Assembly: GCA_019058295.1 (NCBI GenBank)
Contig: JAHPZI010000019.1
Coordinates: 1-64,000, forward strand
Source: Promethearchaeota archaeon
Lineage (GTDB): Archaea; Asgardarchaeota; Lokiarchaeia; Sigyniarchaeales; SOKP01
DNA length: 64,000 nucleotides
Reading direction: 5' to 3'
Of this stretch, positions 22,324 through 49,863 are shown in pieces. How positions within the stretch are numbered: the first letter of the stretch is position 1; every line of letters begins with the position of its first letter. A program made the translations under genes and the position numbers. A model generated the notes under the pieces. That model was not told where the DNA came from. It ran no database searches and was given only the letters and a program-made list of their open reading frames with translations.

Positions 22324-22418
22324 ATTATTTATTTTGTTGTAGAATGATTATAATTTATCTGTAATAATACTATCCATTCCATCAAGTGGATAATATTATG
22401 AAAAAAATAAAAAGGAAT

Positions 22419-22464
22419 TATTTTTTTCTCATTCCTCTATTAACATTAGCCTTTCAAATTGTTC
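22419..22464 (+). repeat. Direct repeat copy A1: orphan copy of the sulfatase 3' end
   Basis: tatttttttctcattcctctattaacattagcctttcaaattgttc matches 23370-23415 with 2 mismatches in 46 bp. Confidence 0.85.
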
Positions 22465-22544
22465 GGCATCATCTTAAAAAGACTAAATTCAAATGATTTC
22501 TATTGAATAAAAACTTAAATATCAGATAAATTTAATAAATATTC

Positions 22545-23294
22545 ATGGATCTAAATTTTTTTCAAACTGTTCAAGGAATATGTGCTTTAATCTTTGTTAT
22601 TTTCACTTTTATTTTAGCATTAATAATTATTATAAAATATTTTGAATTTAAAGATTTTAAACTTCTTCTCGTAGGAACCGCGATTATTGGGTTATCGATG
22701 CCCTATGTTCCGGATTCAATAATGTTTTTCATTATAGTTTCCACACAAGGTAATCTTTCTGATGCTTACTATCTTGAAACCCTTATTATTTTAGTTGCTG
22801 TAACTACATTTATCTCCTCGATAAGTGTCTTCTGTTGGGTATACGCCATCGCAGAATTTATTGGATTAGACAAAACAAAACAGAAAAAAGTTCTTTTACT
22901 ATACACTGTGGCGATGATCGTTTTCTTTGTCCTCTATTTTACATTTTTAATAATTGATATCAGAGTCGTTACTTATTTCCACGGACCCTTTGATTATCAA
23001 TGGGGGTTGTTAGCGATAATTTATTTTATTACAGTATTATTTATATTACTCATAGGGGCTTTAATCTTTGTAGGAATAGCAATTAAGACGCAAAATCCCG
23101 AAGCAAAATTAAAAGCAAAATTTTTACTAATTGGATCTGTATCCTATATCATTGCGACCATTCTCCCATTTTTCGTATATACCATAGAAATGTTAATTAT
23201 ATCAAGAATAATTCTAATTATTTGCTCAATTTTAATTTATATAGGATTTATCCTTCCAGATTCATTGAAAAAGAGATGGCTTAAACAAACTTAA
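22545..23294 (+). CDS. Stand-alone 7-TM membrane protein
   Basis: Seven hydrophobic segments and no soluble output domain. Confidence 0.75.
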   Translation: MDLNFFQTVQGICALIFVIFTFILALIIIIKYFEFKDFKLLLVGTAIIGLSMPYVPDSIMFFIIVSTQGNLSDAYYLETLIILVAVTTFISSISVFCWVYAIAEFIGLDKTKQKKVLLLYTVAMIVFFVLYFTFLIIDIRVVTYFHGPFDYQWGLLAIIYFITVLFILLIGALIFVGIAIKTQNPEAKLKAKFLLIGSVSYIIATILPFFVYTIEMLIISRIILIICSILIYIGFILPDSLKKRWLKQT

Positions 23295-23344
23295 TTGTTT
23301 TTCTAATTATAATCTTGTTACATCATAGATCAATTAGTTCATCA

Positions 23345-23364
23345 TAAATAAATAAATAAATAAA
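23345..23364 (+). repeat. (TAAA)5 microsatellite
   Basis: taaataaataaataaataaa between convergent genes. Confidence 0.6.
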
Positions 23365-23369
23365 AGATC

Positions 23370-23415
23370 TATTTTTTTCTCATTTCTCTATTAACATTAA
23401 CCTTTCAAATTGTTC
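23370..23415 (+). repeat. Direct repeat copy A2 (live sulfatase 3' end and stop)
   Basis: Matches 22419-22464. Confidence 0.85.
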
Positions 23416-24999
23416 AGGGGGACAGCCTTCCTTCTTTAATATATCTCTCATTTTTTGAATCATATTCTGTTCCAGTTCTTTATAATCTTCGTTATCTGCA
23501 AGATTATTCTGGAAATTAGGATCTTCTTTGCGATTGAATAAGTAATTTTGTTTTTGCCCCTTACTATCTACCATTGAAGATAAAAAAACTGATGGGATAG
23601 GGATCTTCCATTGGGGGAAAACCACACCTGGAATGAAAAATCCAGTATCAACTTGTTTTGCTAATTGGGCAACCATATTTTCTGCCACTTCATATTTGAT
23701 CTTAACTCCAAGAACTTCACCTAAATTACTTATAACGCTAGGAGACATGAACATAGAAAAGCTTGAAGAATACCAATGAAGAGGTTTTTTAGCATTAAAA
23801 CCACGGATATAAGTTGTATCCCATGTAGTTAGATGACAGCCAGTTCCGAATATTCCATATAATATATAATCTCTAATTGATTTCTCATCTCCACTCAAAA
23901 CAGGTAATAAAGATTTTCCATCAACCATAGCAGAATCGTCTTTTTCCGCACCTAAGGCATGTAAAATAGTAGCTCGAAGGTCCACAATTGTAGAAAAAGT
24001 TGATGATATTCTTTTCTTTCCATCCATTTCAGGATGATAAATAATTAAAGGAATATTACCTACATCTTCAAAAATGGGATGACCTTTTGCAAATTGTTTG
24101 ATCTTTTTCTCTGGCTCAGCAAGTGCATGTCCATGATCAGCTGTAAGTATTACCATTGTATTTTCCCAGAGATTATATTGATCCATTTTATCCCATAAGT
24201 TACCTAACCATCTATCTACCATGGTAACTTTTCCTTTATATTGGTTCCTTATAAAATCTAATTCTTCGTTTGAAGTATTCTTCATAAATTTAGTTAAAGT
24301 TTTTCTGTCTTGGTAAGGAGGCCAGCAAGTGAAATCTTCATTATATGGACCATACATAGATCGATATGGCTCAGGAACATAGAAAGGCTCGTGAGGATCA
24401 AAACTTTCGATATGAAGAAAGAATTTTTCATGAGAATGATTTTTATCCAACCAATCACAAGCAGATTGCATTATTTTCGGTCCATGAAAGTCTTCTTCCC
24501 CCTTATAATGTTTTACATTTCTATAATACTGGAGAGCTCCTGTTTTTGAAGACCTCCATTTTAATATAGATTTTACCCAACCGGGGTAATTTACTTCATC
24601 TTCTAAAGGTTCAGTACTTGCTGTGTCCATCTCATGTCCTCTAATGAGATCAGTATACATATAATTCTCATGATATCCATGAACTAAGCCTGCTTGTTCC
24701 CAATAATGGTAGTGATCAGTAATTAAAGCCGTTACAGCTCCTAGCTTTCTTGCTTCTAAGGGTAATGGGCGATCAAAGGGCTCCATACTTCCCCAAAACC
24801 TCCAGAGAAATTCATTTTTCCTTCCAGAAAAAAGCTCTCTACGGGCAGGCATGCAGGGTGCGGAGCATAGAAAATGATTCTCAAATACCACCCCTTTATC
24901 AGCAAGTTTTTGCATATTTTTAGTATCCACTTGCTGATTGCCATAAGGCTCAATATAAGACTTGTTTAAACTATCAAAAAGAATAAAAATAACATTCAT
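23380..24999 (-). CDS. Cys-type formylglycine-dependent sulfatase
   Basis: ILFDS, CMPAR (CxPxR), DPHEP, TADHG. Confidence 0.9.
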   Translation of the reverse strand: MNVIFILFDSLNKSYIEPYGNQQVDTKNMQKLADKGVVFENHFLCSAPCMPARRELFSGRKNEFLWRFWGSMEPFDRPLPLEARKLGAVTALITDHYHYWEQAGLVHGYHENYMYTDLIRGHEMDTASTEPLEDEVNYPGWVKSILKWRSSKTGALQYYRNVKHYKGEEDFHGPKIMQSACDWLDKNHSHEKFFLHIESFDPHEPFYVPEPYRSMYGPYNEDFTCWPPYQDRKTLTKFMKNTSNEELDFIRNQYKGKVTMVDRWLGNLWDKMDQYNLWENTMVILTADHGHALAEPEKKIKQFAKGHPIFEDVGNIPLIIYHPEMDGKKRISSTFSTIVDLRATILHALGAEKDDSAMVDGKSLLPVLSGDEKSIRDYILYGIFGTGCHLTTWDTTYIRGFNAKKPLHWYSSSFSMFMSPSVISNLGEVLGVKIKYEVAENMVAQLAKQVDTGFFIPGVVFPQWKIPIPSVFLSSMVDSKGQKQNYLFNRKEDPNFQNNLADNEDYKELEQNMIQKMRDILKKEGCPPEQFERLMLIEK

Positions 25000-25102
25000 A
25001 GTTATATCTGATATTTTGAATTATTTAAGTCTTTAAAATTACTTAGAAAATATATTTATTACATTTATTTAAATTAAGAAGAACTCCTTTTTTTTCATTT
25101 AT

Positions 25103-25948
25103 TTATAAGAATTTTTGGATAAATTCTATACTTTGTGTCAAATCTTCAGCAGAAGATAGTTCCACGATTAATGGGCCTTTATAGTTGTACTCCTTTACTA
25201 TCTTAAATATTTCGTCAAAATTAATTTCTCCTGAGCCTAAAGCAGGATGACTATCCTTTTCTTTATCATTATTATCGACTAAATGAATATTTTTGATGAT
25301 TTTACTGAGTTTCTCCCATAGATAACTAACATCCAAATCGTTTGTCCATCCGTGTGAAGTGTCATAACATAAGAAAAGATCGTTTCTATTTACAGCAGAA
25401 AAGAATTTTTCAATTTCTTTTTCTTTTAATAACATTAAGACATTTTTAGGCATATTTTCCATACAAACCATAACATCTAAATCAGTTACAGCATCTAGAA
25501 GTTTATTTACTGCTTTTATTAATTGGTTTGTATTGGAATTCTTAATAGAATTTATTAGGAAGTTGGCGACTCCTGGATGAATAACCATGATTTGAGCATC
25601 AATTTCTTGGCATATTTCTGCGGTTTCTATATAAAATTCTACGGACGCTTGAGAGATTTTATTGTTGTGAGAACACATACCCATATCTATAAAAGGTCCG
25701 TGCACTTGTTTTTTAATATTTGAAAATGAATTACACATGTCGATAAACTTTTGTCTTTTTTCACTCGTTAAAATTTCTGGAGGATCTAAGACAATTTCAC
25801 ATATCTTATTATCGTTTTCTTCAGCAAATTTAAAACAGGATTCAGTAGCATCAAACAGTAAATTATATAAATTTTTAAATTTTCCTGACAACCCCAGATC
25901 TACAAGAAAACCAAGAGAACTGATACCTAATTCCATTAATATCAACAC
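25103..25948 (-). CDS. Sugar phosphate isomerase/epimerase (AP endonuclease 2 TIM barrel)
   Basis: VHGPF, VIHPG, MENMP, DTSH, IHLVDN, H..LG.G, IVE. Confidence 0.85.
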   Translation of the reverse strand: MLILMELGISSLGFLVDLGLSGKFKNLYNLLFDATESCFKFAEENDNKICEIVLDPPEILTSEKRQKFIDMCNSFSNIKKQVHGPFIDMGMCSHNNKISQASVEFYIETAEICQEIDAQIMVIHPGVANFLINSIKNSNTNQLIKAVNKLLDAVTDLDVMVCMENMPKNVLMLLKEKEIEKFFSAVNRNDLFLCYDTSHGWTNDLDVSYLWEKLSKIIKNIHLVDNNDKEKDSHPALGSGEINFDEIFKIVKEYNYKGPLIVELSSAEDLTQSIEFIQKFL

Positions 25949-27646: not shown

Positions 27647-27709
27647 TCACAAATATTCCTAATATTTTCAATATAAAATATAAATCATTAAAAGAATTTA
27701 ATTATAATT

Positions 27710-28285
27710 ATGATTTCAAGAATTGATCATATATCCTTAGCAGTTAGAGATTTTGATAAAGCCTATAAATTTTTTACCAAGATTTTAGGCGCCACTAAAG
27801 CGTCGCATGCACGTGATAAGTATTTAAAATATTACTGGGAGATTTTAAGATTGGGAGATCTTTCAAGAATTGAACTATTAAAACCTCTTGGTGAAGGTAG
27901 CTTTCTAAGTAATTTTTTAAAGAAAAGAGAGGGAGTACATCATATAAACCTAGAGACTCCCGATATCGAGAGGACAAGAAAAATGCTAGAGGATAATAAA
28001 GTTCCATATTTTGGTTTTAAAAATTATGGTGAAGCTTGGAAAGAGCTTTTTATCCATCCCAGAGACGCATTTGGTGTATTAATCCAAATCGCAGAATTTA
28101 GGCCTGATGATTGGCTTGCTCCTGCAGACATAATGGAGAAAGGGAGAAAATGGATGGTATCTAAAAAAGATAATAAATATGAACTTTCTTTTAAACATCC
28201 AGGAGGAGGAAAGGTAAATTTTGATATGGATAAAGAAGAGATTAACAAGTTAATTAATGATCTTAAAAATTTAATTGATGTCTAA
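27710..28285 (+). CDS. VOC family protein, methylmalonyl-CoA epimerase-like, with C-terminal extension
   Basis: RIDHISLAV, RIELLKP, EGVHHI, FIHPRDAFGVLIQ. Confidence 0.8.
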   Translation: MISRIDHISLAVRDFDKAYKFFTKILGATKASHARDKYLKYYWEILRLGDLSRIELLKPLGEGSFLSNFLKKREGVHHINLETPDIERTRKMLEDNKVPYFGFKNYGEAWKELFIHPRDAFGVLIQIAEFRPDDWLAPADIMEKGRKWMVSKKDNKYELSFKHPGGGKVNFDMDKEEINKLINDLKNLIDV

Positions 28286-30274
28286 AATTTTTTTTATTTC
28301 AAACAAATAAGGTTTAAATTTGGTATCCTCAGAGTTGTAAACCTTTAAAAGCCATAAAAGGGTATAAATTTCAATTTTTTTCTCAAATTTTTTATCTATT
28401 GTATGGTTCCAATATCGAGCATAGCTATCGAAAAATGCTTCCTTTAACTTTATTTCTCCCAATGGCTTTAAAGTTTGAAGATTAAATTTTACAAAATCCA
28501 GAGCACGTACCCCAATCCGCCAATCATCGAAATCTATTAATCCATTTATTCGAATAATTCCTGCTTCATCTTTTACGATTATGTTTTGGGATTGATAATC
28601 GTTATGTACTACCACAGCTTCGGTTTCCTCTTCAATTAGCGCCATATTATCCATAAAATAATCGTCAATTTCTTTAATATTTTCCAATTTACTCTTTTTC
28701 GCCTCTTGAATCTCATATTCTAATTCTGCGTTAATTATCTCAAACCAAGTTTTTTTTCTTTTAGATCCTATATCAATAATTTTTTCATAGAACGAATCGA
28801 ATTTAATTTCGTGTAATTTAGCTAAAATTTCGCCTAAATTACTAAATAAATTTAAAAATTTTGTGGTTGTTAAGCTGTGATTTTCTTCTAAATATTGCTT
28901 TATTATCTGATTCATTGGTTTTCCATGTATATAATCAATTATCGTGAATATATAAGGGATATTTTGTTTAGTTTCATCATAGTAAATCAAATTGCCTATA
29001 GGAACTTTAGGTGGTTTTTGTTTATTAAAAATATAACTTCCTTTTCGTGATTTTATAATTTCATCAATTTTTTTGAAAAAGCTAGGATTAAGATCTCCTA
29101 AAAAGGGAAATAATAGTTTTTCCTTTACTATATTCTCATACGGGAATGATTCTGAAGTACGAAATCTGAAAATAAATTGTGAATCTTCGAAATTTACTCT
29201 ATAATTTGTATTAAAAGTACCATGAAGTGGACCTGTAATCTTTTTAATTTTACCCTGTTCATTTAAAATTGGAATATCTGAAAATAGTTTAATAACTTCG
29301 TCTAATCTATAGATTTCTTCTTTATTTATAGAAATTAATTGATATATATACTTTTGATTTATCAAATAATTGACAGTTGCTTCAATTACATCTTTACTTG
29401 TTTTATCAAGGTCAATTTGGAAATTGGTTAAATTAATGGATAGTAAATCCCTATATAAATAAAGAAAAGCGTATTTTAATCCAAGAAATCTTTGTCCTTT
29501 TTCAAATTTAAAATAAATTTTATCTCTAATATCATCTAATATCTCTTGTATTTGAATTATTTCTAAAACATTATCCTCGAGTGCCGCTTTAAATAATTTT
29601 GAACATAAATTTACTAAATTGCTTACACTAGATACAATCCCAGAATATTTTCGCTTACCTTTTGGAATTAATTGAAGAAATGTAGAAAATTTAGTAGGAT
29701 TACTGCATAAAACTGAAAAATTATCATTTAAAAGATTAATATTAGCTTTATAAAAATTAATTTTATCAGACGCATCAATTATGCCTTTAAGATTTGGAAA
29801 TTTTACTAAATCACTCAATACCTCGGGTTCAATTTCGTTGCCAGCAAACTGAACGGGATTATTATATAAAAAAATAGGATTATCAAGTGTTAAAGAACTT
29901 AAAATATTTTCAAAATATGATTTTAACTCACTGGATAATTTTTTTTCTGAGAATTGTGGTGCTATGATAAAATTAAGGTTATTGAATTTCCCTCCTAAAT
30001 CTTCAATTTGATCAATAATATCTTCTAATTTACTTCCGCTAACAGCAAATATGACCGGAATTTTTTCATCTGTAATTTTATATGCTTTCTTAATGAGGTT
30101 TTTTTGTTTATCAATATTATCTACAAAATTCTCCTCCATATTAAAAATTAAGATAGCATTGGCTCCATTTAAGAACTGGTGCTGAAATAAAAATGATGTT
30201 AGTTGAATATCTATTTGTGAGTTTTCATCAAAGAATATGATTGAAGGGACAATAACACCATTTATCTGTGACAT
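28271..30274 (-). CDS. Fusion: degenerate DapA-like barrel + aminoglycoside/choline phosphotransferase-like kinase
   Basis: N-terminus has GVIVPSII.FDE, LYNNP, PNLKGIIDAS (DapA fold). C-terminus has HNDYQSQN and LIDFDD (APH catalytic motifs). Confidence 0.8.
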   Translation of the reverse strand: MSQINGVIVPSIIFFDENSQIDIQLTSFLFQHQFLNGANAILIFNMEENFVDNIDKQKNLIKKAYKITDEKIPVIFAVSGSKLEDIIDQIEDLGGKFNNLNFIIAPQFSEKKLSSELKSYFENILSSLTLDNPIFLYNNPVQFAGNEIEPEVLSDLVKFPNLKGIIDASDKINFYKANINLLNDNFSVLCSNPTKFSTFLQLIPKGKRKYSGIVSSVSNLVNLCSKLFKAALEDNVLEIIQIQEILDDIRDKIYFKFEKGQRFLGLKYAFLYLYRDLLSINLTNFQIDLDKTSKDVIEATVNYLINQKYIYQLISINKEEIYRLDEVIKLFSDIPILNEQGKIKKITGPLHGTFNTNYRVNFEDSQFIFRFRTSESFPYENIVKEKLLFPFLGDLNPSFFKKIDEIIKSRKGSYIFNKQKPPKVPIGNLIYYDETKQNIPYIFTIIDYIHGKPMNQIIKQYLEENHSLTTTKFLNLFSNLGEILAKLHEIKFDSFYEKIIDIGSKRKKTWFEIINAELEYEIQEAKKSKLENIKEIDDYFMDNMALIEEETEAVVVHNDYQSQNIIVKDEAGIIRINGLIDFDDWRIGVRALDFVKFNLQTLKPLGEIKLKEAFFDSYARYWNHTIDKKFEKKIEIYTLLWLLKVYNSEDTKFKPYLFEIKKILDIN

Positions 30275-30489
30275 ATTAGTTTACTTCGTTATTTATAATA
30301 ATAAAAAGTTAAATTAGATTTCTAATAAAATAGTAAGAATGAGATTTTATTTTCTGTGTAGTATTTTAGAATATTTTTAAATATTAATATTTTATTTTAA
30401 GACAATTAACTATATAAACAAAATATTTGAATGTTTTATTAATAGAAATTAATTTAGATTGGATTAAATTTATATGAGGTGTATATTGA

Positions 30490-31206
30490 ATTTTTTGTAA
30501 AATTGAAGGAGTTGATATTCCTCTTGTTTCTACAGGAACTTCTCCTTTTCTGGGGGCTGGTCAGTTTGGAACTAATGCGCGCATTTACCGTAAGAAATTT
30601 ATGAACCATGTGGATGCTGTGTTAGAAATTTTAGAAGCGAGCTACAAAGCAGGAGGGCGAGGAATCGAAATTATAACTGCAGGTAAAATAAGTGAAGCTG
30701 CCAAAATAATGAAAGAAACGCATACTGATTTTGTAATTACAGGATCTACATTTCCTGGACCTGATCCAATGATAGAAAAACTAATTGAACTTGACACAAA
30801 AATAATTTTTATCCATGGTATGGTGTCAGATAAAAAAGATACTAAACTTATGAAACTTGTTGAAGATGTTTCATCTCGAGGAGTCATACCGGGTATTGCT
30901 GCTCATAATCCTGTTTCTACTTTAGAATATGCTCTTGAGAATTTACCAGATGTAAAGGTTTTTCTAATTCCATTTAATAAAAGAGGAATGTTAATGGGCA
31001 ATAAAAGGAAATTAGAAGAGATTGTTGACAATGCTAAAAATTGCTCGTTTGTAGGTATGAAAACTCTCGCTGCAGGGAAATTGGATCCAAAAAAAGCATA
31101 CGAATACATCTCAAAACATAATATTTGTGCTGTTGCTATCGGAATGGTTGCAACAGAAGAAGCCGAGATATCAACAAAAGTAGCTTTGGAAGCATTAAGT
31201 AAATAA
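30490..31206 (+). CDS. Conserved hypothetical TIM-barrel protein (aldo/keto reductase-like fold)
   Basis: The frame is open from 30490 (GVDIPLVSTGTSPFLGAGQFG...) through PGIAAH, LIPFNKRG and GMKTLAAG. The ORF-track start at 30601 truncates it. Confidence 0.7.
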   Translation: MFCKIEGVDIPLVSTGTSPFLGAGQFGTNARIYRKKFMNHVDAVLEILEASYKAGGRGIEIITAGKISEAAKIMKETHTDFVITGSTFPGPDPMIEKLIELDTKIIFIHGMVSDKKDTKLMKLVEDVSSRGVIPGIAAHNPVSTLEYALENLPDVKVFLIPFNKRGMLMGNKRKLEEIVDNAKNCSFVGMKTLAAGKLDPKKAYEYISKHNICAVAIGMVATEEAEISTKVALEALSK

Positions 31207-31309
31207 CCAAATTTATCTTAATAAAAATAAAAACATAAAATAGTGATTTTATAGAAAAGAAGAAAATTAGGAGTTCCCCCTTACCTGATACTGGTGCCTA
31301 ATGTTATAG
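31114..31309 (+). repeat. Direct repeat copy B1: live 3' end of TIM-barrel gene + spacer + dead 5' end of flavin reductase
   Basis: Aligns by eye to 32961-33155 at roughly 80-85% identity. Confidence 0.9.
31251..31309 (+). pseudogene. Decayed 5' fragment of the flavin reductase gene
   Basis: ATG has become ATA, plus a 1-nt indel relative to 33098-33155. Confidence 0.7.
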
Positions 31310-31348
31310 ATTTCGAAAATCCAAAGTCAGTTTCAATTGGAGTTAAGA

Positions 31349-32821
31349 TTAAGGATTACAGTGAATCGAAGGTTTTCGATCAATCCAGGGTCTTTCTTGC
31401 TCTAATTGAGCTGCTAAACGGAAAAGAGTGGCTTCATTACCAAAACGAGCTGCGAATTGAAGGCCTATTGGTAAATTATCAGCATTCCAATATAATGGAA
31501 CGGACATGGCTGGTTGACCTGTTACATTAAAGATACTAGTAAAAGCACTCATTTGACTCATTAATTGGAAAGATTTACCTACATTCTCTGCTGTAAAAGA
31601 TCCAATCTTTACTGGAGGAATGGACATTGTCGGAGTAAGTAGTAAATCATATCCACCTTTATGAAACCATTGTGCTATTTGCCGTGAAAAGAGTTGGCAT
31701 TCTTCTAATGCAAGTATATAATCAGAAGCAGTTCGTCTTACCGCATTTTTATAAAATAACCAAGTCAAAGGTTCCATTTGGTCTTCTGTAATCTTGGTCC
31801 CTAATTCTTTTTCTATATATGTTAAACTCGAACCAGTAATGGAAATATACATAACACTAAAAGCCGTGAAAAGATTTGCATAACTTAATTCCTCTGGATT
31901 TACATCTACAACATTATGTCCTAAACTTTCACATAGTTGAGCAACATCTTTTACTGCTTTCTCGCAATCTGGATGAACTTTAGTATTAGAACTCCACCCC
32001 TTAGGAACGGAAGTTAAATATCCAATTTTTAAACGCCCCACTTCATGATGAATTTCTTCTAAATAAGGGCGTTTTTTTGGTGGAGCATAATAAGGATCTC
32101 CTATGTCTGGTCCTGATGTTGCATCCAATAATGCTGCTGAATCTCTTACTGTGCGAGTAAGTGCGTGTTCTGAAACTATTCCGCTACCAATATCACCATA
32201 ACGTGGGCCGAGAGGATTTCGAGCGCGAGTAGGTTTCAGACCAAAAACTCCACAACAAGAAGCGGGGATACGAATTGAGCCCCCTCCATCGTTTCCATGA
32301 GCAATTGGGACGATTCCAGCGGCTACAGCTGCAGCTGAACCACCACTCGAGCCTCCTGGTGTTATATTTAGATCCCAAGGGTTTCTTGTAGGTCCAAATA
32401 AGACAGGTTCTGTAGTGGGAAGAATACCAAATTCAGGAGTATTAGTTTTACCAACAACAATTAATCCAGCAGCTTTATGACGTTTCACTAGCTCTGTATC
32501 CCATTTTGAAACATTTCCTTTGAGGAGTTTAGCGCCTGAATAGTAAGGTGTTCCTTCATATTCCGCACAAATATCTTTTAAAAGGAATGGTATACCACTA
32601 AAAAGAGCATCAATTTTTTTACCTGTACTAATTTCCTTATCCCAATTTTCTGCATTTTTACGTGCCTCATCATACATTTTATAAATCACAGTATTGATTT
32701 TAGGATTAACTCGCTCAATTCGCTCGATAGTCATCTCTACTAATTCGGATGGCTTAATTTCTCGTTCTCGGACCATTTCTCCTAAACGAATAGCGTCATA
32801 TTCAATTAATTCAGCTTTCAA
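31349..32821 (-). CDS. Amidase signature family enzyme (6-aminohexanoate-cyclic-dimer hydrolase-like)
   Basis: [20 protein letters not shown] and [12 protein letters not shown] (Ser-cisSer-Lys triad). Confidence 0.92.
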
Positions 32822-32960
32822 ATTTTTTCACTTCTTTATTTTTAATTTTTAGTTGGATTAAATTTTTAATTGAATATTTAGAAAATAAGATATTAATACA
32901 TATATAAGCTTCTAATGAGAATAGTTCTATAGGTTTCTAATCAGAATATTATGTTTTGAT

Positions 32961-33155
32961 AAATATAATATTTTTGCTGTAATTATAGGAATAGTTGTAA
33001 CAGAAGAAGCAGAAATATCAATAAAAATAGCTTTAAAAGCAATAAGTAAATAACTAATTTTATCTTAATAAAAATAAAAACAAAAAATAGTGATATTATG
33101 GAAAAAAAAAAAATTAAGGCTACCTGCTACCTGTTTCCGATGCCTACTGTTATAG
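32961..33155 (+). repeat. Direct repeat copy B2: dead 3' end of TIM-barrel gene + spacer + live 5' end of flavin reductase
   Basis: 32961-33053 translates KYNIFAVIIGIVVTEEAEISIKIALKAISK* versus the live KHNICAVAIGMVATEEAEISTKVALEALSK*. Confidence 0.9.
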
Positions 33156-33667
33156 CAGGTGCGAATGTGAATGGTAAACCAAATTTTGTAACAATTGCAT
33201 TTTGTGGTAGTCTTCAATATAAACCCCCAATGTTAGTAATTTCTTCTGGTAAAAACCATTATACAAATATAGGCATAAGAGAAAATAATACTTTCAGTGT
33301 AAATATACCTTCTATAGAGATGGTTAAAGTTACTGATTATATAGGGACAATCTCTGGTAAACAAATAGACAAGTCAGTTTTATTTGATATTTTTTATGGA
33401 GAATTAGAGAGCGCACCTATGATAAGCGAAGCACCAGTCAATTATGAGTGTAAGGTGGCAAAAATTATTAATCTTAATGGTACTAATGATATTATTATTG
33501 GAGAAATTGTACAAACCTACGTTAATGAAGATTGTACTACTAAAGGAAAACCAGATATTCAAAAAATACAACCAATTGTATTTTCTGGTTTTGATTCTAA
33601 TTATATGAAGGTTGGAGATGTTCTAGCTCAAGCATATAAAATTGGTCGAGACTATAAAAAAGAGTAA
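33098..33667 (+). CDS. Flavin reductase / flavoredoxin family protein
   Basis: LFPMP, GKPN, HYTNIGIREN.TFSVNIP, APMISEAPVNYECK. Confidence 0.9.
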   Translation: MEKKKIKATCYLFPMPTVIAGANVNGKPNFVTIAFCGSLQYKPPMLVISSGKNHYTNIGIRENNTFSVNIPSIEMVKVTDYIGTISGKQIDKSVLFDIFYGELESAPMISEAPVNYECKVAKIINLNGTNDIIIGEIVQTYVNEDCTTKGKPDIQKIQPIVFSGFDSNYMKVGDVLAQAYKIGRDYKKE

Positions 33668-33681
33668 TTCAATTAATTTTT

Positions 33682-34311
33682 TTATATATATTTTCTTACA
33701 ACTTCGCCTCTTGGGGTTTTTTCTTCAAATAAAATAGCTTGAAATGAATAAATTTTAGTACTTAGATCTTTCCAAGCATCTGTGGGAAGCCATGCTTTTT
33801 GACAAGTATGGGAGAGAAAGGTTTCCACATCCCAGTTCCGATCATGATCCACCGGAACTTGAGGGAGTAATAATCCTCTTCGCGCCCCTAATTCTGCGAT
33901 TAATCCATCCCTTCCAATAACGATTTTTTCGAGATACTCTTTAGGATCGTTTACTTCAATTTGTTTAGGTGGAGTTAATATAGATATTTCGATTACGATA
34001 TCGTCCATTTCTTCTAATCTAACTGAACGGAAACGAGGATCTTCTATAGCTGAACTAATTGAAACTCTATGAACCACCTCATATAAAGGATAAGTAGGTT
34101 CTATATAACCTATGCACCCTCTCAAAGGATTGCCTCCTACATTGAATTTATTTAAAGTAACGAATGCTCCATAATTGTTTGCGAACTTTTGTTTAATTTC
34201 TTCGGGAACACCTATTCTTTTATTATTTTTTAGATAATGCTCGATGTTTTCCCTTGCAAAATTGATAAGCATCTTTCCCTCTTCTACACTAAATTTCTCC
34301 TCGTTTGACAT
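33682..34311 (-). CDS. AMMECR1 domain protein
   Basis: GAFVTL, LRGCIG, DPRF, EISILT, GLLLPQV. Confidence 0.93.
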   Translation of the reverse strand: MSNEEKFSVEEGKMLINFARENIEHYLKNNKRIGVPEEIKQKFANNYGAFVTLNKFNVGGNPLRGCIGYIEPTYPLYEVVHRVSISSAIEDPRFRSVRLEEMDDIVIEISILTPPKQIEVNDPKEYLEKIVIGRDGLIAELGARRGLLLPQVPVDHDRNWDVETFLSHTCQKAWLPTDAWKDLSTKIYSFQAILFEEKTPRGEVVRKYI

Positions 34312-34374
34312 AATATTAACCTAAAAATTTTCTTATATGTATAAATAAAATTAAGTTACTTGATATTTTATATT

Positions 34375-35766
34375 TTATAGGAATTTTATTATCGAGCCCA
34401 TTGGTGTAGAATTTTCAATATTAATTTCTACTCCTCTTAAAAAGACTTTCCAAATTTGGATGTTTGTTTCAAAGTTTTCGAATGGTGAAAATTTTGCCTT
34501 TGTTTTAAAATTTTGAGAATTAATTTTATATTGTGGAATTTTATCAATAATCATTAAATCAGCAACATAGCCTACTTTTATAAATCCTTTATTTTTTAAT
34601 TTAAATTGTTTTGCTGGTTGTTCTGACGCTGCCTTTACAAAATTTTCTAATGATAATTCATAATGGCATACTTTATTAAGTAATAAAAGTGGATAGGTTT
34701 CAAATCCTGGAAATCCTGAAGGTGCATCAGAATATTCTCCTGATTTTTCTTTTAGTGTATGTGGGGCGTGATCAGTTCCGATTAATTGTATTTTTCCATC
34801 TAATAATTCATTTAATAAGAACTGTGAATGATTCTCATCTCTTAAAGGAGGCAAAACTTTACCATAATTATCATTACTTAGTATAACCTTATTTGACAAA
34901 ATTAGGTGATGAGGTGTAATTTCAAATGTTATTTTTAAATTTTTATAAGTATTTATTGCTTTTTTTATTAAAGAATAACTGTCTATACAACTTATATGAC
35001 AGAAATGAATAATCGGATAATTTTTGGACTCTAAATCATTATCAGTAATAATTTTATAATAATTTTCAAGAATAAAATTCACATATTTCGCTTCCATTTG
35101 ACACGGATAAAGCATATTATGTAATTCTAGCGCATTATAATTTTCTAATGTGTTTTCTTGAAGAATATCCTCTTTTTTATCCTCAGTTATCGCCCAATCG
35201 GGGTGAATAAAAATAGGAATTTGGTATTTTGATGAGATAAGAAGAATCTTTTGAATATTTAACCAGTCAGTCCAATCAACTTCATTCAAAGAACTAAGTG
35301 GGTATATTTTAAACCCAATTACACCTAAATCTATAATTTTAATAATTTCTTCAAAATTGATTCCTTTAGGGACTCCTGCAATAAATCCGACATCTACATG
35401 AATATTTTTTTGAGCCTTATCCATCCATTTCTTAACTTGTTTGGCGGAAATTGCGGGAGGTTTTGTATTAGGCATATTAAAAACAGTTGTTATTCCGGAA
35501 AACGCAGCTGCTTTCGTTCCTGTTAGAAATGTTTCTTTTTCGGATTGATCCATATCACGTAAATGAGAATGAATATCGATAATTCCCGGGATAATTAATT
35601 TATTTTCGCAATTAATTTCTTTTCCATCATCATTATTTTGAGTGATAAAATTATAATCTTCTACAGAAGGATCAAAACAAATTGATTGAATAATTCCCTT
35701 GTTGATAAGAAGTGCGCCTTTACGTACTATGCCTTCTGAATAAATCTTAGCATTCTGTAAAATCAT
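34375..35766 (-). CDS. pyrC: Dihydroorotase (type I amidohydrolase)
   Basis: DIHSHLR, MPNTKP, HFCHIS, PHHL, PPLR, TDHAPH. Confidence 0.85.
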   Translation of the reverse strand: MILQNAKIYSEGIVRKGALLINKGIIQSICFDPSVEDYNFITQNNDDGKEINCENKLIIPGIIDIHSHLRDMDQSEKETFLTGTKAAAFSGITTVFNMPNTKPPAISAKQVKKWMDKAQKNIHVDVGFIAGVPKGINFEEIIKIIDLGVIGFKIYPLSSLNEVDWTDWLNIQKILLISSKYQIPIFIHPDWAITEDKKEDILQENTLENYNALELHNMLYPCQMEAKYVNFILENYYKIITDNDLESKNYPIIHFCHISCIDSYSLIKKAINTYKNLKITFEITPHHLILSNKVILSNDNYGKVLPPLRDENHSQFLLNELLDGKIQLIGTDHAPHTLKEKSGEYSDAPSGFPGFETYPLLLLNKVCHYELSLENFVKAASEQPAKQFKLKNKGFIKVGYVADLMIIDKIPQYKINSQNFKTKAKFSPFENFETNIQIWKVFLRGVEINIENSTPMGSIIKFL

Positions 35767-36427
35767 ATTTATCTTGTTTTTTCAATAAATCTACTCGAAA
35801 ATTAACATACAAAAATTTATCTTCTATACTATTAATTTTTGAAAGCGTTAAAAATTTTATATCTTTCAAATCTTTAAACAGTTGAAAAAAGTTGGAATCT
35901 TCAATTATTGTATTGTATGCGGGAATAATGTAGAAAAAGTCAGATATAGGATTTAAAGTTTCAAATTCATTAACTGTAAGATATGAGTTTACTTTTCCTA
36001 CATCGTCATCATTAATTATAAAAATGGGTTTGAAAGATGGAAAAGATTTAAAATACTTAATAAACGATTCGTTATTGGAAAATTTCCTTATATGAATACC
36101 GGGGGTTGATCTTCTCCAATCTTCAATATCTGAAGAATTAAATAGGTTTATTTTGTCTATGGCTTTTTTTAATAACAAAGCTTGCGAACGCTCGTCCGGA
36201 CCTAAATATTTTAATCTATTCCCTTCAAATTTAATTAATACCCCTTCATTTTGAAAATATAATAACAAATTATTCTCTTTTCTGATTGCATAGGAAAGAC
36301 AGAAAGTCTCACGAATACAAGAACAAATTATGTAAATTTCAAAAGGAGTTTTTCCTACATCAATATCCTTTTTATTATAGTTAGTGAGATTTTTAACTAA
36401 TAATAAGAAATTTACCAATCTAATCAA
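35747..36427 (-). CDS. Divergent TrmY-like SPOUT protein (tRNA pseudouridine-54 N1-methyltransferase family)
   Basis: FCLSYAIRK, LKYLGPDERS and STPGI motifs; located beside SRP54. Confidence 0.6.
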   Translation of the reverse strand: MIRLVNFLLLVKNLTNYNKKDIDVGKTPFEIYIICSCIRETFCLSYAIRKENNLLLYFQNEGVLIKFEGNRLKYLGPDERSQALLLKKAIDKINLFNSSDIEDWRRSTPGIHIRKFSNNESFIKYFKSFPSFKPIFIINDDDVGKVNSYLTVNEFETLNPISDFFYIIPAYNTIIEDSNFFQLFKDLKDIKFLTLSKINSIEDKFLYVNFRVDLLKKQDKYDFTEC

Positions 36428-36442
36428 GAAAAGTAAGAATAT

Positions 36443-37819
36443 CTAAAATTTAAAATTTTTACTTAATTTATCCATAAATGCTGCAGCACCTTTTCCCATT
36501 CCCGGCATTCCCGGCATTCCTTTTCCCTTTTTGCGAGCTTGTAAAAATCGTTTCATCATTTTCTTCATTTGGTTATATTGATCTAACATTTTATTAATTA
36601 CAGCATATTCTGTACCCGAACCGATTGCAATTCGTCTTTTCCTTGTCTTTTTAATAATTTTTGGAGTTTCTTTCTCTTCCTGCGTCATAGAATCTAAAAC
36701 TACTCTCCATTTCTCAATATTTCTTTCTGCATCATCTTTTAGGGCGTCGGGAATGTTCCCTCCCCCCATCATTGCAAGAATTTCCCGCATTTTACCGACT
36801 TTTTTTATATTTTTAATCTGCATATAGAGATCTTCTAATGTGAATCTCCCTTTCATCATACGTTTGACCGCCTCAGGATCGGGCATAACTTCTGCTTCTT
36901 GAACTCTTTGTACAAGGGCTTCGAGATTTGGAATACCTAAAAGGGTACCTACAAAACTAGTCGCTTCGAATTCTTCAAAGGCATCTATTTTTTCACCAAT
37001 CCCAATAAATCGAATGGGAACATTGGTAGCAGCACAAGCAGATAAGGCACCTCCTCCTTTTGCTGTACCGTCTAATTTAGTAACTATAATGCTTCCAAGA
37101 TTTGTTGCTTTGCCAAATTCTTCAGCTTGAGGGTAAGCTTGTTGCCCAAGTGTTCCGTCAATCACCAGTATAGTTTCGTTTGGCTTTAAAACACTTTCAA
37201 TCTTCTGCATTTCTGTCATTAATTCTTTTTCCTCTTTGTGTCTTCCTGCTGTATCGACAATAATTATGTCATGTCCATCTGCCAATGCCCTTTTAGTTTC
37301 TTTAACGGCGATTTTTAAAGCATTCTTTTCGTTCGGATTCCCATAACATTTTACAGGAATTTGTTTAGTTAATTGAACAAGTTGTTCGTAAGCTCCAGGC
37401 CGATAAGTGTCCGTCGTAATTGTAGCAACTTTATAGCCCTTGCTATTGTAAAATTTAGCCAATTTTCCAATCGTTGTGGTTTTACCTGAACCTTGGATTC
37501 CTACAAGTAGAATAACATTTTTTTTCCCCGGTTTTATCCTTATGGGGGCTTGTTTTCCTCCTAAAACATGCACTAATTCATCGTGGATTAATGAAATAAC
37601 GAAATCTTTTCTTTTTGCTTTCTGAAGTTTAGTATTCATTGCCTCTTTTTTAATATTTTCTGTCATTTCAAACACTAATTCGACTTTTACATCTGCACTT
37701 AGAAGTGCTCGTTGTAAATCTTGAATTAGAGCATTAATGGCATCTTTATCTACTCTGGGAAGACGACGTAATTTTCTAATAGCGTTATCCAAATTGCGAC
37801 CGAGATTTTCTAAAACCAT
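36443..37819 (-). CDS. srp54: Signal recognition particle GTPase SRP54
   Basis: [20 protein letters not shown]; M domain SMT..E...RRIA.GSG; GMPGMPGMG tail. Confidence 0.96.
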
Positions 37820-37952
37820 AAGTCAAGTAATCTCTAATTTTATTACCTATTTGATTTAATATTCAAAACCTAATATTTTTTTTTAATAAAAATATTAATA
37901 AATTAAAAAGAATGAAATGTCAAAAATAAAAATATTCATAAATTAATTAAGA

Positions 37953-38393
37953 TTGGTGTTTACAATTAGCATACGTCGAACTGAAATCCAGAAGCTTAAG
38001 ACTGGAAATTTTATCATGGTTGATGATGAACCTTGCGTTATAAAAAGTACTGAACGTTCGAAGAGCGGCAAACATGGCCATGCGAAGGTCCGGGTGTCTT
38101 GTATTGGAATGTTTGATAATAACAAGAGATCTTTAACTTTTCCGAGTGGTCAAATGGTGGAGGTTCCAGAAATTATAAAAGGCAATGCCCAGATTAACTA
38201 TATTGAGGATACACTCATTAATGTCATGGATTTAGAAAGTTACGAGTCCGTGGATATAGATTGGCCCAGAGATGAAGATTTAATAAAAAAATTAAAAGAA
38301 CTACAAGCCGATCCTAGTAAAATGTCGTCCTCACAAGTAGATTATTGGCAATTAGCTGGAAAAATGCTTATCAATAGAGTGTTTACCACATAA
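37953..38393 (+). CDS. eif5a: Translation factor aIF5A
   Basis: Hypusine loop SKSGKHGHAK. Start may be ATT at 37965. Confidence 0.95.
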   Translation: MVFTISIRRTEIQKLKTGNFIMVDDEPCVIKSTERSKSGKHGHAKVRVSCIGMFDNNKRSLTFPSGQMVEVPEIIKGNAQINYIEDTLINVMDLESYESVDIDWPRDEDLIKKLKELQADPSKMSSSQVDYWQLAGKMLINRVFTT

Positions 38394-38492
38394 CTTCTTT
38401 CACATAAATTAATTCAATCTTTCTTAATTAATTGTTTTCTTAAAATCAGCTTTAAAAACTTATTAATTCCAATTAAGAGATTTTGTGTTATT

Positions 38493-39401
38493 ATGGAGAA
38501 AAAAGCGATTGCAATAGCTTGCCGAATGGATTCGGAAAGAGCAATTAAGTTAGCTAAAAGGATTTTTGAATTTTTAATCAAGAAGGGTGAAGTTGTTTAC
38601 CCAGAAACTAGAATAGCGCCAAAAATTCTTCCCCATAGTGGTAAAGATTTAAATGAAATGAATTCTAACGATATAAAGTTTTTAATTTCGATTGGTGGTG
38701 ATGGAACCCTTCTCAGAGTAGCAAATTGTTTACCACAAAATGATGCCCCTCCAATATTCGGCGTAAACATTGGATCTATAGGATTTTTAGACGAATCTAA
38801 TGAAAGAATTGTATTTAACGATTTAAACCCTTTATTAAATGGAGAATTTATAATCGAAAAATGTTCTAAAATTACTCCCTACATAGTTAAAGATAATGAA
38901 GAAATTAAACTCAACAATGCGTTAAACGAGATACTAATTGTTTCCTCCAAACATTCAAAAGTCTTACAAGTGTCATTAAGAATTAATGGGATTTTCCTCA
39001 ATCGAAGCTATTTAGACGGAGTAATTATCTCGACTTCAACTGGGTCCACGGCTTATAACCTAAGTGCTGGGGGGTCAATAATTACACCAAACACAGAAAT
39101 TATGCAAATAACTCCCCTAAATAGTTTTGCTCGTTCTGGATTAAGACCTATGGTTCTTCCTATTGAATCAGAAATAGAGATTGAGCTTTTAAGACCTCGA
39201 TTGAATGCTAAGATTGTGGTAGATGGTCAACAAGTAATAAAAGATATTCAGCCGAATACATTAATAAGAGTTCGGAAAGCAAATTCTGAAATTTATCTTA
39301 TCCGTTTATCTAAAAATCTTTACGAGAATTATTTTAAAAGATTAAGAAAAAAAATTATTGGTACAGTAAGGGTTCCATTAGATGACTCTCCAGAAGAGTA
39401 A
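38493..39401 (+). CDS. nadK: NAD(+)/NADH kinase
   Basis: GGDGT, GSIGFL, ALNE, DG..ISTSTGSTAYNLSAGG. Confidence 0.94.
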   Translation: MEKKAIAIACRMDSERAIKLAKRIFEFLIKKGEVVYPETRIAPKILPHSGKDLNEMNSNDIKFLISIGGDGTLLRVANCLPQNDAPPIFGVNIGSIGFLDESNERIVFNDLNPLLNGEFIIEKCSKITPYIVKDNEEIKLNNALNEILIVSSKHSKVLQVSLRINGIFLNRSYLDGVIISTSTGSTAYNLSAGGSIITPNTEIMQITPLNSFARSGLRPMVLPIESEIEIELLRPRLNAKIVVDGQQVIKDIQPNTLIRVRKANSEIYLIRLSKNLYENYFKRLRKKIIGTVRVPLDDSPEE

Positions 39402-39936
39402 TAAGAAGAATAATGAAATTTTAATTTTTGATACCAATATTTTCCTAATGGGTGTTGATTTCAATTTATTAGAGGGAATTATTTACACTACCGATAATAT
39501 CATTGAAGAGGTTAAAGTAGAAAGATATCTTAATAAAAATAGAAACATAATCAATAGAATTCAGGCAGCAATAGATAGTGGTAAGTTAAAAGTAAGAACA
39601 CCCTTAAAAACATATGTTTCTAAGATTGATAAATCATCCAAAATAACTGGTGATTATAATGCTCTTTCTAATCCTGATAAAGAATTAATAGATTTAGCTT
39701 TAGAGTTAAAATTTACACGCAATAAGAACATACTTGTATATACTAATGATTATTCTATGCAAAATGTATGCTCTGAGATGCAGATTCCATTTTCACCATT
39801 AATTAGAAAAGGAATTAAATCAAAAATACTCTGGGAAGTATACTGTCCTCATTGTGAGGATATTCACAATGTAGAAGAATTAAATAAACCTTGTGAAAAA
39901 TGTGGATTAAAATTAAAGCGACGACCAAAAAAATAA
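39382..39936 (+). CDS. nob1: Nob1 rRNA maturation endonuclease (PIN + zinc ribbon)
   Basis: FDTN, LSNPD, TNDYSMQN, CPHC...CEKCG. Confidence 0.88.
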   Translation: MTLQKSNKKNNEILIFDTNIFLMGVDFNLLEGIIYTTDNIIEEVKVERYLNKNRNIINRIQAAIDSGKLKVRTPLKTYVSKIDKSSKITGDYNALSNPDKELIDLALELKFTRNKNILVYTNDYSMQNVCSEMQIPFSPLIRKGIKSKILWEVYCPHCEDIHNVEELNKPCEKCGLKLKRRPKK

Positions 39937-40014
39937 AATAAGGATATAGTGGAAATTATATATAAGAATATCCAATTATAATTAGATAAAGACAAAGTGC
40001 GAAGAGAAATTATA

Positions 40015-41055
40015 ATGGGAATAAAAATAAATGAATTAGTGGGAGAAGTAAAGAGATCAATCACATTCGAGAACTTATTCTCAAAAAAAATTGCTATTGA
40101 TGCGTTCAATACTATTTATCAATTCTTAGCAATCATTCGTCAGAGAGATGGAACGCCACTGAAAGATTACGAGGGTAACGTTACCTCGCATCTTTCAGGA
40201 TTATTTTATAGAACAATAAATTTCATAGAACATAATATTAAACCTATTTATGTTTTTGATGGAAAACCATCTGAATTAAAGTTAAAGACAATTTCAGAAA
40301 GAAGGAAGATAAAAGAAGAAGCTAAAGTCAAAATGGTTGAGGCGCAAGAAAAAGAGGATTTTAAAGAAGCGAAAAAATTTGCTCAAATGACATCCAAACT
40401 CGATTCTGATATGATTGAAGAGAGCAAAAAATTAATTTCATTTATGGGCATTCCACTCGTTGAGGCTAGCTCAGAAGGGGAATCTCAATCTGCATATATG
40501 GTAGAAAATGGGGATGCTTGGGCTTGTGCTTCTCAGGATTATGATACTTTATTGTTTGGAGGAGAAAGATTAATAAGAAATTTTGCGGTGAGTCGAAGTA
40601 AAAAGGTTAAGGACACCGCAATCACACTAGATATTGAGTATGTTTCACTATCAAAATTCCTAGACAATTTTGGGATAACCAGAGAACAACTAATAGATAT
40701 GGGAATCTTAATCGGAACTGATTTTTTTCCAGGTATAAAAGGAATTGGACAACATAAAGCATTGGAATTAATAAAAGAACATAAATCAATAGAAAATATT
40801 ATAAAAAATAAGATAAAAGAAATTGAACTAGATTTAGATGTGGTTAATCAAATAAAAGATATTTTTTTAAATCCTGATATTAAAAAAGAATACCCAAAAT
40901 TAATCTGGAACAAAATAGATTACGAAAAAATCGAAGAGCTGATGATTGAGCAACATAATTTTTCAGATTCTAGAATTAAAAACGCTTTAGAACGTTTAAG
41001 GAAAAATGATTCTTCTAAAACTCAAGTTTCGCTTGATAGATATTTTAAAAAATAA
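40015..41055 (+). CDS. fen: Flap endonuclease 1
   Basis: MGI start, IDAFN, TSHLSGLFYR, EGESQ, SQDYD, GTDF; C-terminal PIP box QVSLDRYF. Confidence 0.96.
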   Translation: MGIKINELVGEVKRSITFENLFSKKIAIDAFNTIYQFLAIIRQRDGTPLKDYEGNVTSHLSGLFYRTINFIEHNIKPIYVFDGKPSELKLKTISERRKIKEEAKVKMVEAQEKEDFKEAKKFAQMTSKLDSDMIEESKKLISFMGIPLVEASSEGESQSAYMVENGDAWACASQDYDTLLFGGERLIRNFAVSRSKKVKDTAITLDIEYVSLSKFLDNFGITREQLIDMGILIGTDFFPGIKGIGQHKALELIKEHKSIENIIKNKIKEIELDLDVVNQIKDIFLNPDIKKEYPKLIWNKIDYEKIEELMIEQHNFSDSRIKNALERLRKNDSSKTQVSLDRYFKK

Positions 41056-41148
41056 TAATTTCATTTATATTTCAAAAAGCAAAAATTTTTACAGAATTTA
41101 ATTATTTAATATACATATCATACAAATTCTAATAATAATTGAATAATT

Positions 41149-43377: not shown

Positions 43378-43492
43378 AATTAAAAAATTTAATTAAAAAG
43401 CTATTATTTTTAAATTTATTACTTAAATCTATTCCTAAATTTCTTATATTTTCTAAATAGATCTAAAAATTAAACACCTATGGTGAAATTTT

Positions 43493-43765
43493 ATCGAATC
43501 ATATCGTTGGAACCAAAAACCAATTTTGAATATAATTATTGAGTTGCTTCTAAAAAATAAAGGAGAGATGTTAGATAAAAGAATGGAAGAATTACTTAAA
43601 AAAGAATTCCCATTCATTAACACATTAGTCTTAGAAGAAATCTTCATGAAGCTGGAAACCATGAACATAATAAATGTTTTCCGAGTCTCAAAAACGAAAA
43701 AAATGATTGTTCTCAATAAAAATAACGAAAAAATAAACGAGCCCTTGATGCGCGAACTGCTTTAA
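43493..43765 (+). CDS. Small winged-helix-like protein downstream of CDC48
   Basis: PILNIIIELL...FMKLETMNIINVFRVSKTKKMI pattern. The frame is open from 43487; the ORF track starts at TTG 43526, and a candidate ATC start lies at 43493. Confidence 0.55.
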   Translation: MESYRWNQKPILNIIIELLLKNKGEMLDKRMEELLKKEFPFINTLVLEEIFMKLETMNIINVFRVSKTKKMIVLNKNNEKINEPLMRELL

Positions 43766-49851: not shown

Positions 49852-49863
49852 GATGATAATCTC

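Follow-up and report, generated by a model that had tools for sequence, protein, structure and literature searches.

A predicted amidase gene inserted with a long target duplication at a gene junction of a Promethearchaeota archaeon

Introduction

Insertion with long target duplication was defined from a genome comparison of Helicobacter pylori (Nobusato et al. 2000, Gene 259:99) and extended by Furuta et al. (PMC2853133). The published cases are bacterial and came from a screen for restriction-modification systems; the repeats given in the tables measure 46-423 bp, and no archaeal case survived the screen (PMC2853133). As a common cause, the authors proposed breakage of DNA by the cargo itself (PMC2853133). 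Here, we describe a locus of this class in an Asgard archaeon, where a predicted amidase gene lies between two copies of a junction of neighbouring genes. The window, that is, the whole stretch of 64,000 nucleotides analysed, comprises positions 1 to 64,000 of contig JAHPZI010000019.1 from assembly GCA_019058295.1. This assembly is a 3.2-Mb metagenome-assembled genome (MAG) of a Promethearchaeota archaeon, 79% complete and with 3.6% contamination; it is designated G000, with the window being its contig 19, and the related genomes compared with it are designated G003 to G007. A reading of the window's letters alone, called the original prediction below, had proposed that the amidase gene was inserted inside a duplicated gene junction.

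Other routes by which genes are added come close to such a locus. Campbell-type integration by a single crossover, known from archaeal 'pop-in' genetics, places an insert between direct duplications and needs no dedicated recombinase. Eukaryotic double-strand break repair is known for captured or templated filler DNA and for snap-back synthesis, furthermore for alternative end joining and for P-nucleotide-like palindromes after hairpin opening. Integron gene cassettes depend on attC sites, an IntI integrase and an attI platform; they have reportedly been found in Archaea as well.

Results

The duplicated junction and the inserted gene

The junction between two genes, named X and R, was found twice in the window, with a single gene unit between the two copies. 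A repeat search of the window yielded an ungapped pair of direct repeats at 31114-31269 and 32961-33116 with 86% identity; gapped alignment and BLAST lengthened this pair to 31114-31309 and 32961-33155 (E about 1e-49 to 1e-51). Counting of columns gave 162 identical columns of 195, which corresponds to 33 differences, and one 1-base indel. A BLAST search of the 3.2-Mb genome returned two copies of the 195-bp repeat only, both at the amidase locus. The following features make up the locus.

30490..31206, + strand: left neighbour, gene X, encoding about 238 amino acids of an uncharacterised archaeal family; its 3' end lies within the left copy
31114..31309: left target copy, consisting of the live 3' end of X (31114-31206), the spacer (31207-31250) and the dead 5' remnant of the reductase gene (31251-31309)
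31251..31309, + strand: dead 5' remnant of the flavin reductase gene, with ATG>ATA at 31251-31253 and a 1-base indel
31310..32960: insert of 1651 bp, a single complete transcription unit, missing from G006
31349..32821, - strand: gene of the amidase-signature enzyme, 490 amino acids, TTG start, GGSSGGS motif
32822..32906, - strand: upstream (promoter) region of the amidase gene, which arrived together with it; a homologous stretch precedes the G003 amidase gene
32961..33155: right target copy, consisting of the dead 3' remnant of X (32961-33053), the spacer (33054-33097) and the live start of the reductase gene (33098-33155)
33098..33667, + strand: flavin reductase gene R, the right neighbour, intact; PF01613, E = 9e-24

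The stop codon of X at 31204-31206 is located in the left copy, and the ATG of R at 33098 in the right copy. The dead X remnant in the right copy is still 70% identical over 30 amino acids. Differences between the two copies were polarised on G006. Within the X part, 10 of 15 differences arose in the dead right copy, and nine of these ten are GC>AT changes; within the R part, the dead left copy accounts for 9 of 14. The redundant halves of both copies decayed reciprocally and neutrally, mostly by GC>AT changes. The original prediction had given the repeats at these positions with about 33 differences, had described a dead reductase start on the left (ATA, indel) and a dead X end on the right with mostly GC-to-AT decay, and had placed one opposite-strand amidase gene between the copies; the repeat search, BLAST, the alignment and the PF01425 match to the gene at 31349-32821 agreed with it on all of these points.

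The insert is composed of 139 bp upstream, the amidase gene and 39 bp downstream, and its G+C content is 0.34-0.48 as compared to 0.23-0.30 in the AT-poorest flanks. The deduced protein covers profile positions 1-444 of 445 of PF01425 (E = 1e-106) and contains the Gly/Ser-rich GGSSGGS signature of the family; its closest relative with a solved structure is 6-aminohexanoate-cyclic-dimer hydrolase (NylA, PDB 3a2p, E = 1e-99). The cargo is thus predicted to be an amidase-signature hydrolase. The gene evolves under purifying selection, with a ratio of nonsynonymous to synonymous divergence (dN/dS) of 0.21-0.23 against G007 and G005 and of 0.19 against G003. Its start codon (32819-32821) is TTG in G000, G007 and G005, and ATG at the same position in G003.

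By BLAST, window positions 31344-32906 align to the amidase locus of G003 (L044 1902-341) at 85%. An RNA intermediate (retro-copy) was considered and seems disfavoured, because a conserved upstream region of about 85 bp travelled with the gene. No close paralogue of the insert was found in G000, where only distant amidase paralogues with 67-74% identity over ~200 bp are present; copy-paste by an intragenomic template switch is therefore unlikely. The tails of the insert, 31310-31343 and 32907-32944, produced chance-level matches only in a short-word BLAST search against the genome; they align weakly to the flanks of the amidase genes in G003 and G004.

Empty, filled and derived alleles in related genomes

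The site is empty in G006. Gene X, a 43-bp spacer and R follow each other there, and the one junction sequence (L025 10451-10603) aligns to both repeat copies of the window. Contig C5 of G006 aligns to window positions 28487-31271 and 32965-45488, with 31272-32964 missing, and both genomes are colinear over >40 kb. At this syntenic site, R and its G006 orthologue share 86% amino acid identity.

G007 and G005 have a nucleotide identity of 91-96% to the window, and X, the left copy and the amidase gene are present in both. They match the window in the boundary between R remnant and insert and in the ATG>ATA lesion; their dead reductase remnant holds further deletions of 33 and 28 bp. Because the boundary between the R 5' end and the insert is identical and the ATG>ATA change is common to all three genomes, we conclude that a single insertion took place before G000, G007 and G005 split. 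Both G007 and G005 lack one segment of the window.

32852..33681: segment missing in G007 and G005; it spans the distal amidase upstream sequence, the right copy and all of R, and both of its ends fall in a shared TTAATTTTT motif

The resulting gap of ~0.83 kb was located in G007:C40 (L042 about 9250-9330) and in G005:C113, and about 30 bp of the amidase upstream region are kept. This gap represents a later deletion, because its first 55 bases (32852-32906) have a homologue upstream of the G003 amidase gene, and hence belonged to the insert from the start, and because its ends lie in the TTAATTTTT motif. Therefore, the arrangement in the window is ancestral to G000, G005 and G007. In G007 and G005, the amidase gene is still intact despite the loss of R, and no other close reductase orthologue was found in these two genomes (best E about 1e-7).

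Contigs assembled from sediment metagenome runs of three studies span the boundaries 31309/31310, 32960/32961 and 33155/33156. One weak 'skip' joint (32851>33075, side 21) was observed in a run and was not used as evidence.

Age of the insertion and origin of the amidase

The two copies are identical to the single copy of G006 at 149/194 and 150/194 positions (77% each) as compared to 162/195 (83%) between left and right. Because the copies are closer to each other than to G006, although half of each has been a pseudogene, the duplication postdates the G006 split; the empty site of G006 is therefore not a secondary deletion. The dead halves show 0.11-0.16 changes per site, accumulated on one branch. 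Synonymous divergence (dS) of the amidase gene between G000 and G007, which includes two branches, is 0.11, and dS of the flanks between G000 and G006 is 0.45-1.4. Divergence of the dead halves falls between half of the former value and the latter. Dating by decay therefore gives the order of events as split of G006, insertion, split of G000 from G007/G005 and, finally, deletion of R in this pair.

Between G000 and G003, the amidase gene shows 85% DNA identity and a dS of 0.46, whereas R shows 69% identity with saturated dS and the other flanks are about 70% identical. The amidase gene is far less diverged than the flanking genes and must therefore have moved between congeneric lineages after their divergence. 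Amidase orthologues of G003 (85% amino acid identity) and G004 (69%) both adjoin an Fe-containing alcohol dehydrogenase (Fe-ADH) gene; an orthologue of the latter was not found in the 79%-complete MAG of G000. Judged by this context, the Fe-ADH locus would be the older home of the amidase.

In a maximum-likelihood tree, the amidase G003_C315 groups with those of G000, G005 and G007, and the fork that would make the G003 copy their sister lacks resolution. Other amidases of Promethearchaeota form a 100/100-supported clade apart from G003_C315 and the trio. The archaeal clade as a whole sits among bacterial sequences from Chloroflexota, Dehalococcoidia and a deltaproteobacterium with 50-53% identity; an older transfer of the amidase from bacteria into the Promethearchaeota group is possible. 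G003 carries two diverged amidase copies.

Mobility genes and an inverted copy at the right junction

Pfam searches revealed no integrase or transposase among the 17 annotated genes within about 10 kb on each side of the insert. These genes are metabolic or housekeeping genes (SRP54, aIF5A, NAD kinase, AMMECR1, amidohydrolase, DHDPS-kinase fusion, glyoxalase, aldolase and others). The only tRNA gene of the window (3067-3143) is located 28 kb from the insert. Site-specific integration does not describe the locus, where an integrase and a tRNA are missing and the repeats are local, unique and different from case to case. Likewise, the features of a DNA transposon, an insertion sequence (IS) or a miniature inverted-repeat transposable element were not found: terminal inverted repeats (TIRs) are missing at the ends of the amidase insert, the duplication measures 195 bp, and among the 24 repeat-bracketed inserts treated below its length varies over 35-303 bp and no shared end motif was seen.

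An inverted copy of target sequence was detected at the right junction.

32945..32959: 15-nt fold-back at the right junction, perfect reverse complement of 31111-31125

The stretch 31111-31125 consists of the first 12 bases of the target and the 3 preceding ones in their ancestral state, which is kept in the left copy and in the relatives and was lost from the right copy. The original joint was therefore a palindrome of roughly 30 nt. Across random genome positions, an inverted match of at least 15 nt was obtained in 1 of 4000 trials. A fold-back is the product expected of hairpin formation or of snap-back priming at a free DNA end; it speaks for a former broken end, joined illegitimately, at the left edge of the right copy.

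Recurrence of repeat-bracketed inserts in the genome

A second case is present in the same window.

22403..22464: left copy of a ~62-bp duplication, with the dead 3' end of a sulfatase-family gene and the spacer
22465..23353: insert of 889 bp with one gene for 249 amino acids (22545-23294, + strand), no Pfam family
23354..23415: right copy, in which the sulfatase-family gene 23380-24999 (- strand) has its live 3' end (stop 23380-23382)

Both copies comprise 62 nt and are 87-89% identical. The corresponding sites in G007:C115 and G005:C303 are empty and contain a single copy of the repeat, with 94-96% identity of the flanks.

The genome of G000 was compared with itself for pairs of repeats of 35-400 bp with at least 75% identity and a distance of 200-6000 bp. 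This comparison gave 1 inverted repeat pair and 108 direct ones, many of which are located inside very large repetitive genes, including an open reading frame (ORF) of 14,474 amino acids on C21. Repeats within one gene and repeats between tandem paralogues were removed before candidates were counted. About 24 direct pairs remained, which bracket 1-7 whole genes and have their copies at gene ends or in spacers. Their repeats are 35-303 bp long, some of them only 35-37 bp, and most of the inserts have no close paralogue in G000. A clean empty site with a single copy of the repeat was found for 4 of the 7 loci tested, namely the amidase gene, the gene for 249 amino acids, C25 15702-16576 (empty in G006) and C22 92653-94084 (empty in G007). 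Comparisons at C9, C21 and C30 were complex or uninformative.

Two of the candidate loci showed additional features. At C25 15634-16644, a gene for 277 amino acids lies between 68-bp repeats that are 100% identical, and the insert is also present in G007. About 7 neutral differences would be expected between these repeats, and none was observed, which suggests gene conversion, constraint or a recent re-integration by homologous recombination. Locus C2 58200-65800 has the form of a permuted scar, in which repeat 1, two genes, repeat 2, again repeat 1, one gene and again repeat 2 follow each other. In G007 and G005, repeat 2 follows almost directly on the first 74 bp of repeat 1, and the 3.4 kb in between are missing. 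The internal joint from repeat 2 to repeat 1 resembles the junction of a circle or of a tandem unit with differing cargo.

Of about five segments in the window that are specific for G000, only two carry such repeats. The 98-kb syntenic stretch of G006 contains three segments specific for G006 and no insert bracketed by direct repeats. The route therefore explains a part of the gene turnover and not all of it.

Neighbouring genes and other differences to G006

Gene X matched no family in Pfam. The G006 orthologue of X, a protein of 243 amino acids, aligns in frame to 30490-31203 by tblastn. The nearest named cluster for X in the ESM Atlas is an aldo/keto reductase with a lead-only score of 0.76; the TIM-barrel label of the original prediction thus stays unconfirmed for X. 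PDB matches of X to pentatricopeptide repeat proteins contained no stretch that passed alone and were taken as spurious. The first canonical start codon of X is at 30601, and no ATG, GTG or TTG was found upstream of it (30487-30603). The conserved N-terminus begins at ATT 30490, immediately 3' of a TGA; the 37 residues from this ATT differ at 1 position from G007 and align to the G006 orthologue, which has a GTG start. X in G000 and G007 may have a non-canonical ATT start or an N-terminal truncation.

Upstream of X, a fusion protein of 667 amino acids with a DHDPS-family aldolase domain and an APH-type kinase domain is encoded at 28271-30274 (- strand); it is conserved in G006 (688 amino acids). 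Along G006:C5:144790-194111, genes are present or absent every few kb as compared to the window. A Zn-alcohol dehydrogenase gene (18185-19222) and about 9 kb at 48404-57558 occur only in G000, the segments specific for G006 measure 3.9, 0.9 and 1.25 kb, and replacements were found at 22333-25103 and 27647-28487. Additionally, 1.2 kb between divergent genes at 11052-12276 contain no ORF of >88 amino acids and gave no Rfam match at gathering score; G006 has about 128 bp at this position, and the extra part in the window is 11426-12243.

Discussion

The amidase locus belongs to the class of insertions with long target duplication as delimited in PMC2853133. The indel has both flanks aligned, and both repeats match one single-copy sequence of G006; the duplication is >30 bp and variable, with 195 bp at the amidase gene and 62 bp in the second case; the insert of 1651 bp is <20 kb and has no mobility gene in it or beside it. 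Cargo of the restriction-modification type characterises the published screen and not the rearrangement; the cargo found here is the amidase-signature hydrolase. As this cargo is without a nuclease, it cannot be the agent of its own insertion.

The comparison shows the following course of events. In the common ancestor of G000, G005 and G007, after the split of G006, a 1.65-kb segment was joined at the X|R junction; it consisted of the amidase gene, its own upstream region and a short tail, and about 195 bp of the target were left on both sides. On the left, the 3' end and terminator of X stayed intact, as did the promoter and 5' end of R on the right. The redundant halves then decayed with the amidase under selection, and G007/G005 later deleted the right copy together with R. 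This event and the order of its steps are, in our opinion, very probable. The amidase donor may have been a congener lineage with the gene beside Fe-ADH. As to the mechanism, we infer illegitimate repair of a break without a recombinase, in which two chromosome ends overlapping by ~195-199 bp would have been end-joined to a foreign fragment. Such an overlap could be due to staggered breaks, to synthesis on a sister copy that lengthened the ends, or to breakage of two genome copies at different places. The right-hand end would have passed through a fold-back or hairpin state, by which the 15-nt inverted copy of the first target bases would have been left behind. Capture during break repair specifically is proposed with reserve, as its chances appear to be slightly less than even; the explanation as a whole, in which event and mechanism are taken together, seems rather probable.

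Break-repair capture is favoured over Campbell-type integration, and the latter over two-step or enzyme-driven routes. In Campbell-type integration, a small circle with the amidase gene and one copy of the X|R junction would have entered by a single homologous crossover of the RadA type. A single crossover gives exactly the topology observed, homologous recombination can act on repeats of 35-300 bp, and the identical repeats at C25 suggest ongoing homologous exchange at such cassettes; both copies have common derived states as compared to G006, so the junction copy of the circle would have come from the same lineage. However, a molecule combining amidase and junction must already have existed, which only moves the problem of origin back, and the only other contexts found for the amidase adjoin Fe-ADH and not X or R. 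Moreover, repeats of merely 35-37 bp are among the candidates, and the fold-back at the repeat boundary marks illegitimate end joining, although circle closure could explain it. We therefore regard a Campbell-type origin as unlikely. The same end product would be obtained in two steps, either by tandem duplication of the junction and subsequent landing of the amidase gene exactly between the copies or by tandem duplication in a donor and homologous replacement; the latter pathway is drawn for rRNA operons as the alternative to insertion with long target duplication (PMC3457768). A two-step origin demands that two rare events independently hit one base pair, and again at each of roughly 24 loci, and the intermediate, a tandem junction without insert, was not seen in any relative compared, so that it must be called improbable.

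A site-specific recombinase or transposase that acts in trans on a non-autonomous cassette of the integron, IS or casposon type is more improbable still. Units of a single gene with its own promoter do resemble cassettes, and trans-acting enzymes may be missed in a 79%-complete MAG; but the 24 inserts have no TIRs, attC-like sites or shared end motifs, duplications of 35 to about 300 bp are far beyond any known fixed stagger, and no integrase or transposase within about 10 kb and no tRNA target were found. It is hardly credible that the amidase was ancestral at the site and that the empty allele of G006 arose by deletion between the repeat copies. Recombination of direct repeats would restore a seemingly pristine junction; yet the copies are 83% alike as against 77% to G006, which only strong gene conversion could reconcile with such a deletion, and the dS of 0.46 to G003 is far below the saturated dS of the neighbouring gene. 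An assembly chimera of two strains in the metagenome bin could be suspected, as the genome is an incomplete MAG with some contamination. Because two congeners with assemblies of their own also have the left junction and contigs of three studies bridge all boundaries, we consider a chimera to be excluded for practical purposes.

Several observations weigh against capture by break repair. The mechanism itself is inferred and was not observed. A donor with the exact breakpoints was not found, and no match was obtained for the outermost 34 and 54 bp of the insert; hence, microhomology at the joints cannot be scored. G000 is 79% complete, so the Fe-ADH partner has to be called 'not found' rather than 'absent'. 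The other 47 junctions, with 23 other repeat-bracketed candidates, show no fold-back, and closing of a circular intermediate could leave the same fold-back as a broken end. At three of the seven tested loci the comparison was complex or uninformative, and C25 agrees better with homologous recombination or gene conversion of cassettes than with a single old capture event.

With regard to the original prediction, a gene was added at the site and both neighbours stayed whole, and this happened without a transposase or integrase nearby. The empty-site allele that it suggested to seek in relatives exists in G006, the second case that it named is real, the pattern recurs throughout the genome, and, on the question of a donor that it raised, the nearest relative of the amidase was found in G003, beside Fe-ADH. 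Two doubts raised with it, namely an amidase ancestral at this site and a chimeric assembly, did not hold. It left the choice between a Campbell-type circle and repair open; here, the fold-back leans to break repair without deciding the matter.

An ordinary enzyme as cargo means that the bacterial idea of cleavage by the cargo cannot apply, and it points to a repair pathway of the host. One may tentatively ask whether Asgard archaea of the Loki type frequently capture single foreign transcription units at broken gene junctions by means of overlapping ends, with neither recombinase nor cargo nuclease; we hold this generalisation to be conceivable but rather doubtful. If it is true, long target duplications would protect both neighbours, the route would make up a sizeable share of the rapid gene turnover of this lineage, and the datable scars would yield rates, donors and repair chemistry. 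Roughly two dozen similar scars in this one genome make the process countable, including rates, the spectrum of repeat lengths and junction chemistry across Asgard, other archaea and bacteria. As an example, the amidase locus is fully resolved: the empty and the filled allele and a derivative that arose later are all present in the genomes compared, a likely donor context was found, and the reciprocal decay serves as an internal clock.

In the literature searched, this route was described neither for Asgard archaea nor as a general one for ordinary genes. The closest systems differ from the amidase locus in several respects. Like integron cassettes, the inserts are single genes added one by one at intergenic positions; unlike them, they have no attC-like structure, integrase or array, and the flanking repeats are copies of the local target. 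Campbell integration requires a circle with the target segment; neither this circle nor a corresponding donor arrangement was found, and a fold-back is present at the junction. The capture of filler DNA in eukaryotes is similar in that foreign DNA lies between two ends with a short inverted copy of the adjacent end at the joint; it differs in that filler events usually show short duplications or deletions, and here the mark is present at one junction only. The published insertions with long target duplication come closest: as in those cases, a gene unit is absent from a close relative, direct repeats of >30 bp match a single-copy empty site, repeat length is variable, a transposase or integrase is missing, and repeats often overlap the ends of neighbouring genes (PMC2853133). 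Unlike them, the amidase locus belongs to an Asgard archaeon and its cargo, an ordinary metabolic enzyme, includes no nuclease; about two dozen scars with unrelated cargos occur in one genome, and reciprocal decay of the pseudogene halves is visible. To the known class, this locus adds the archaeal host, a cargo without nuclease, the recurrence within one genome and a history of three alleles with reciprocal decay.

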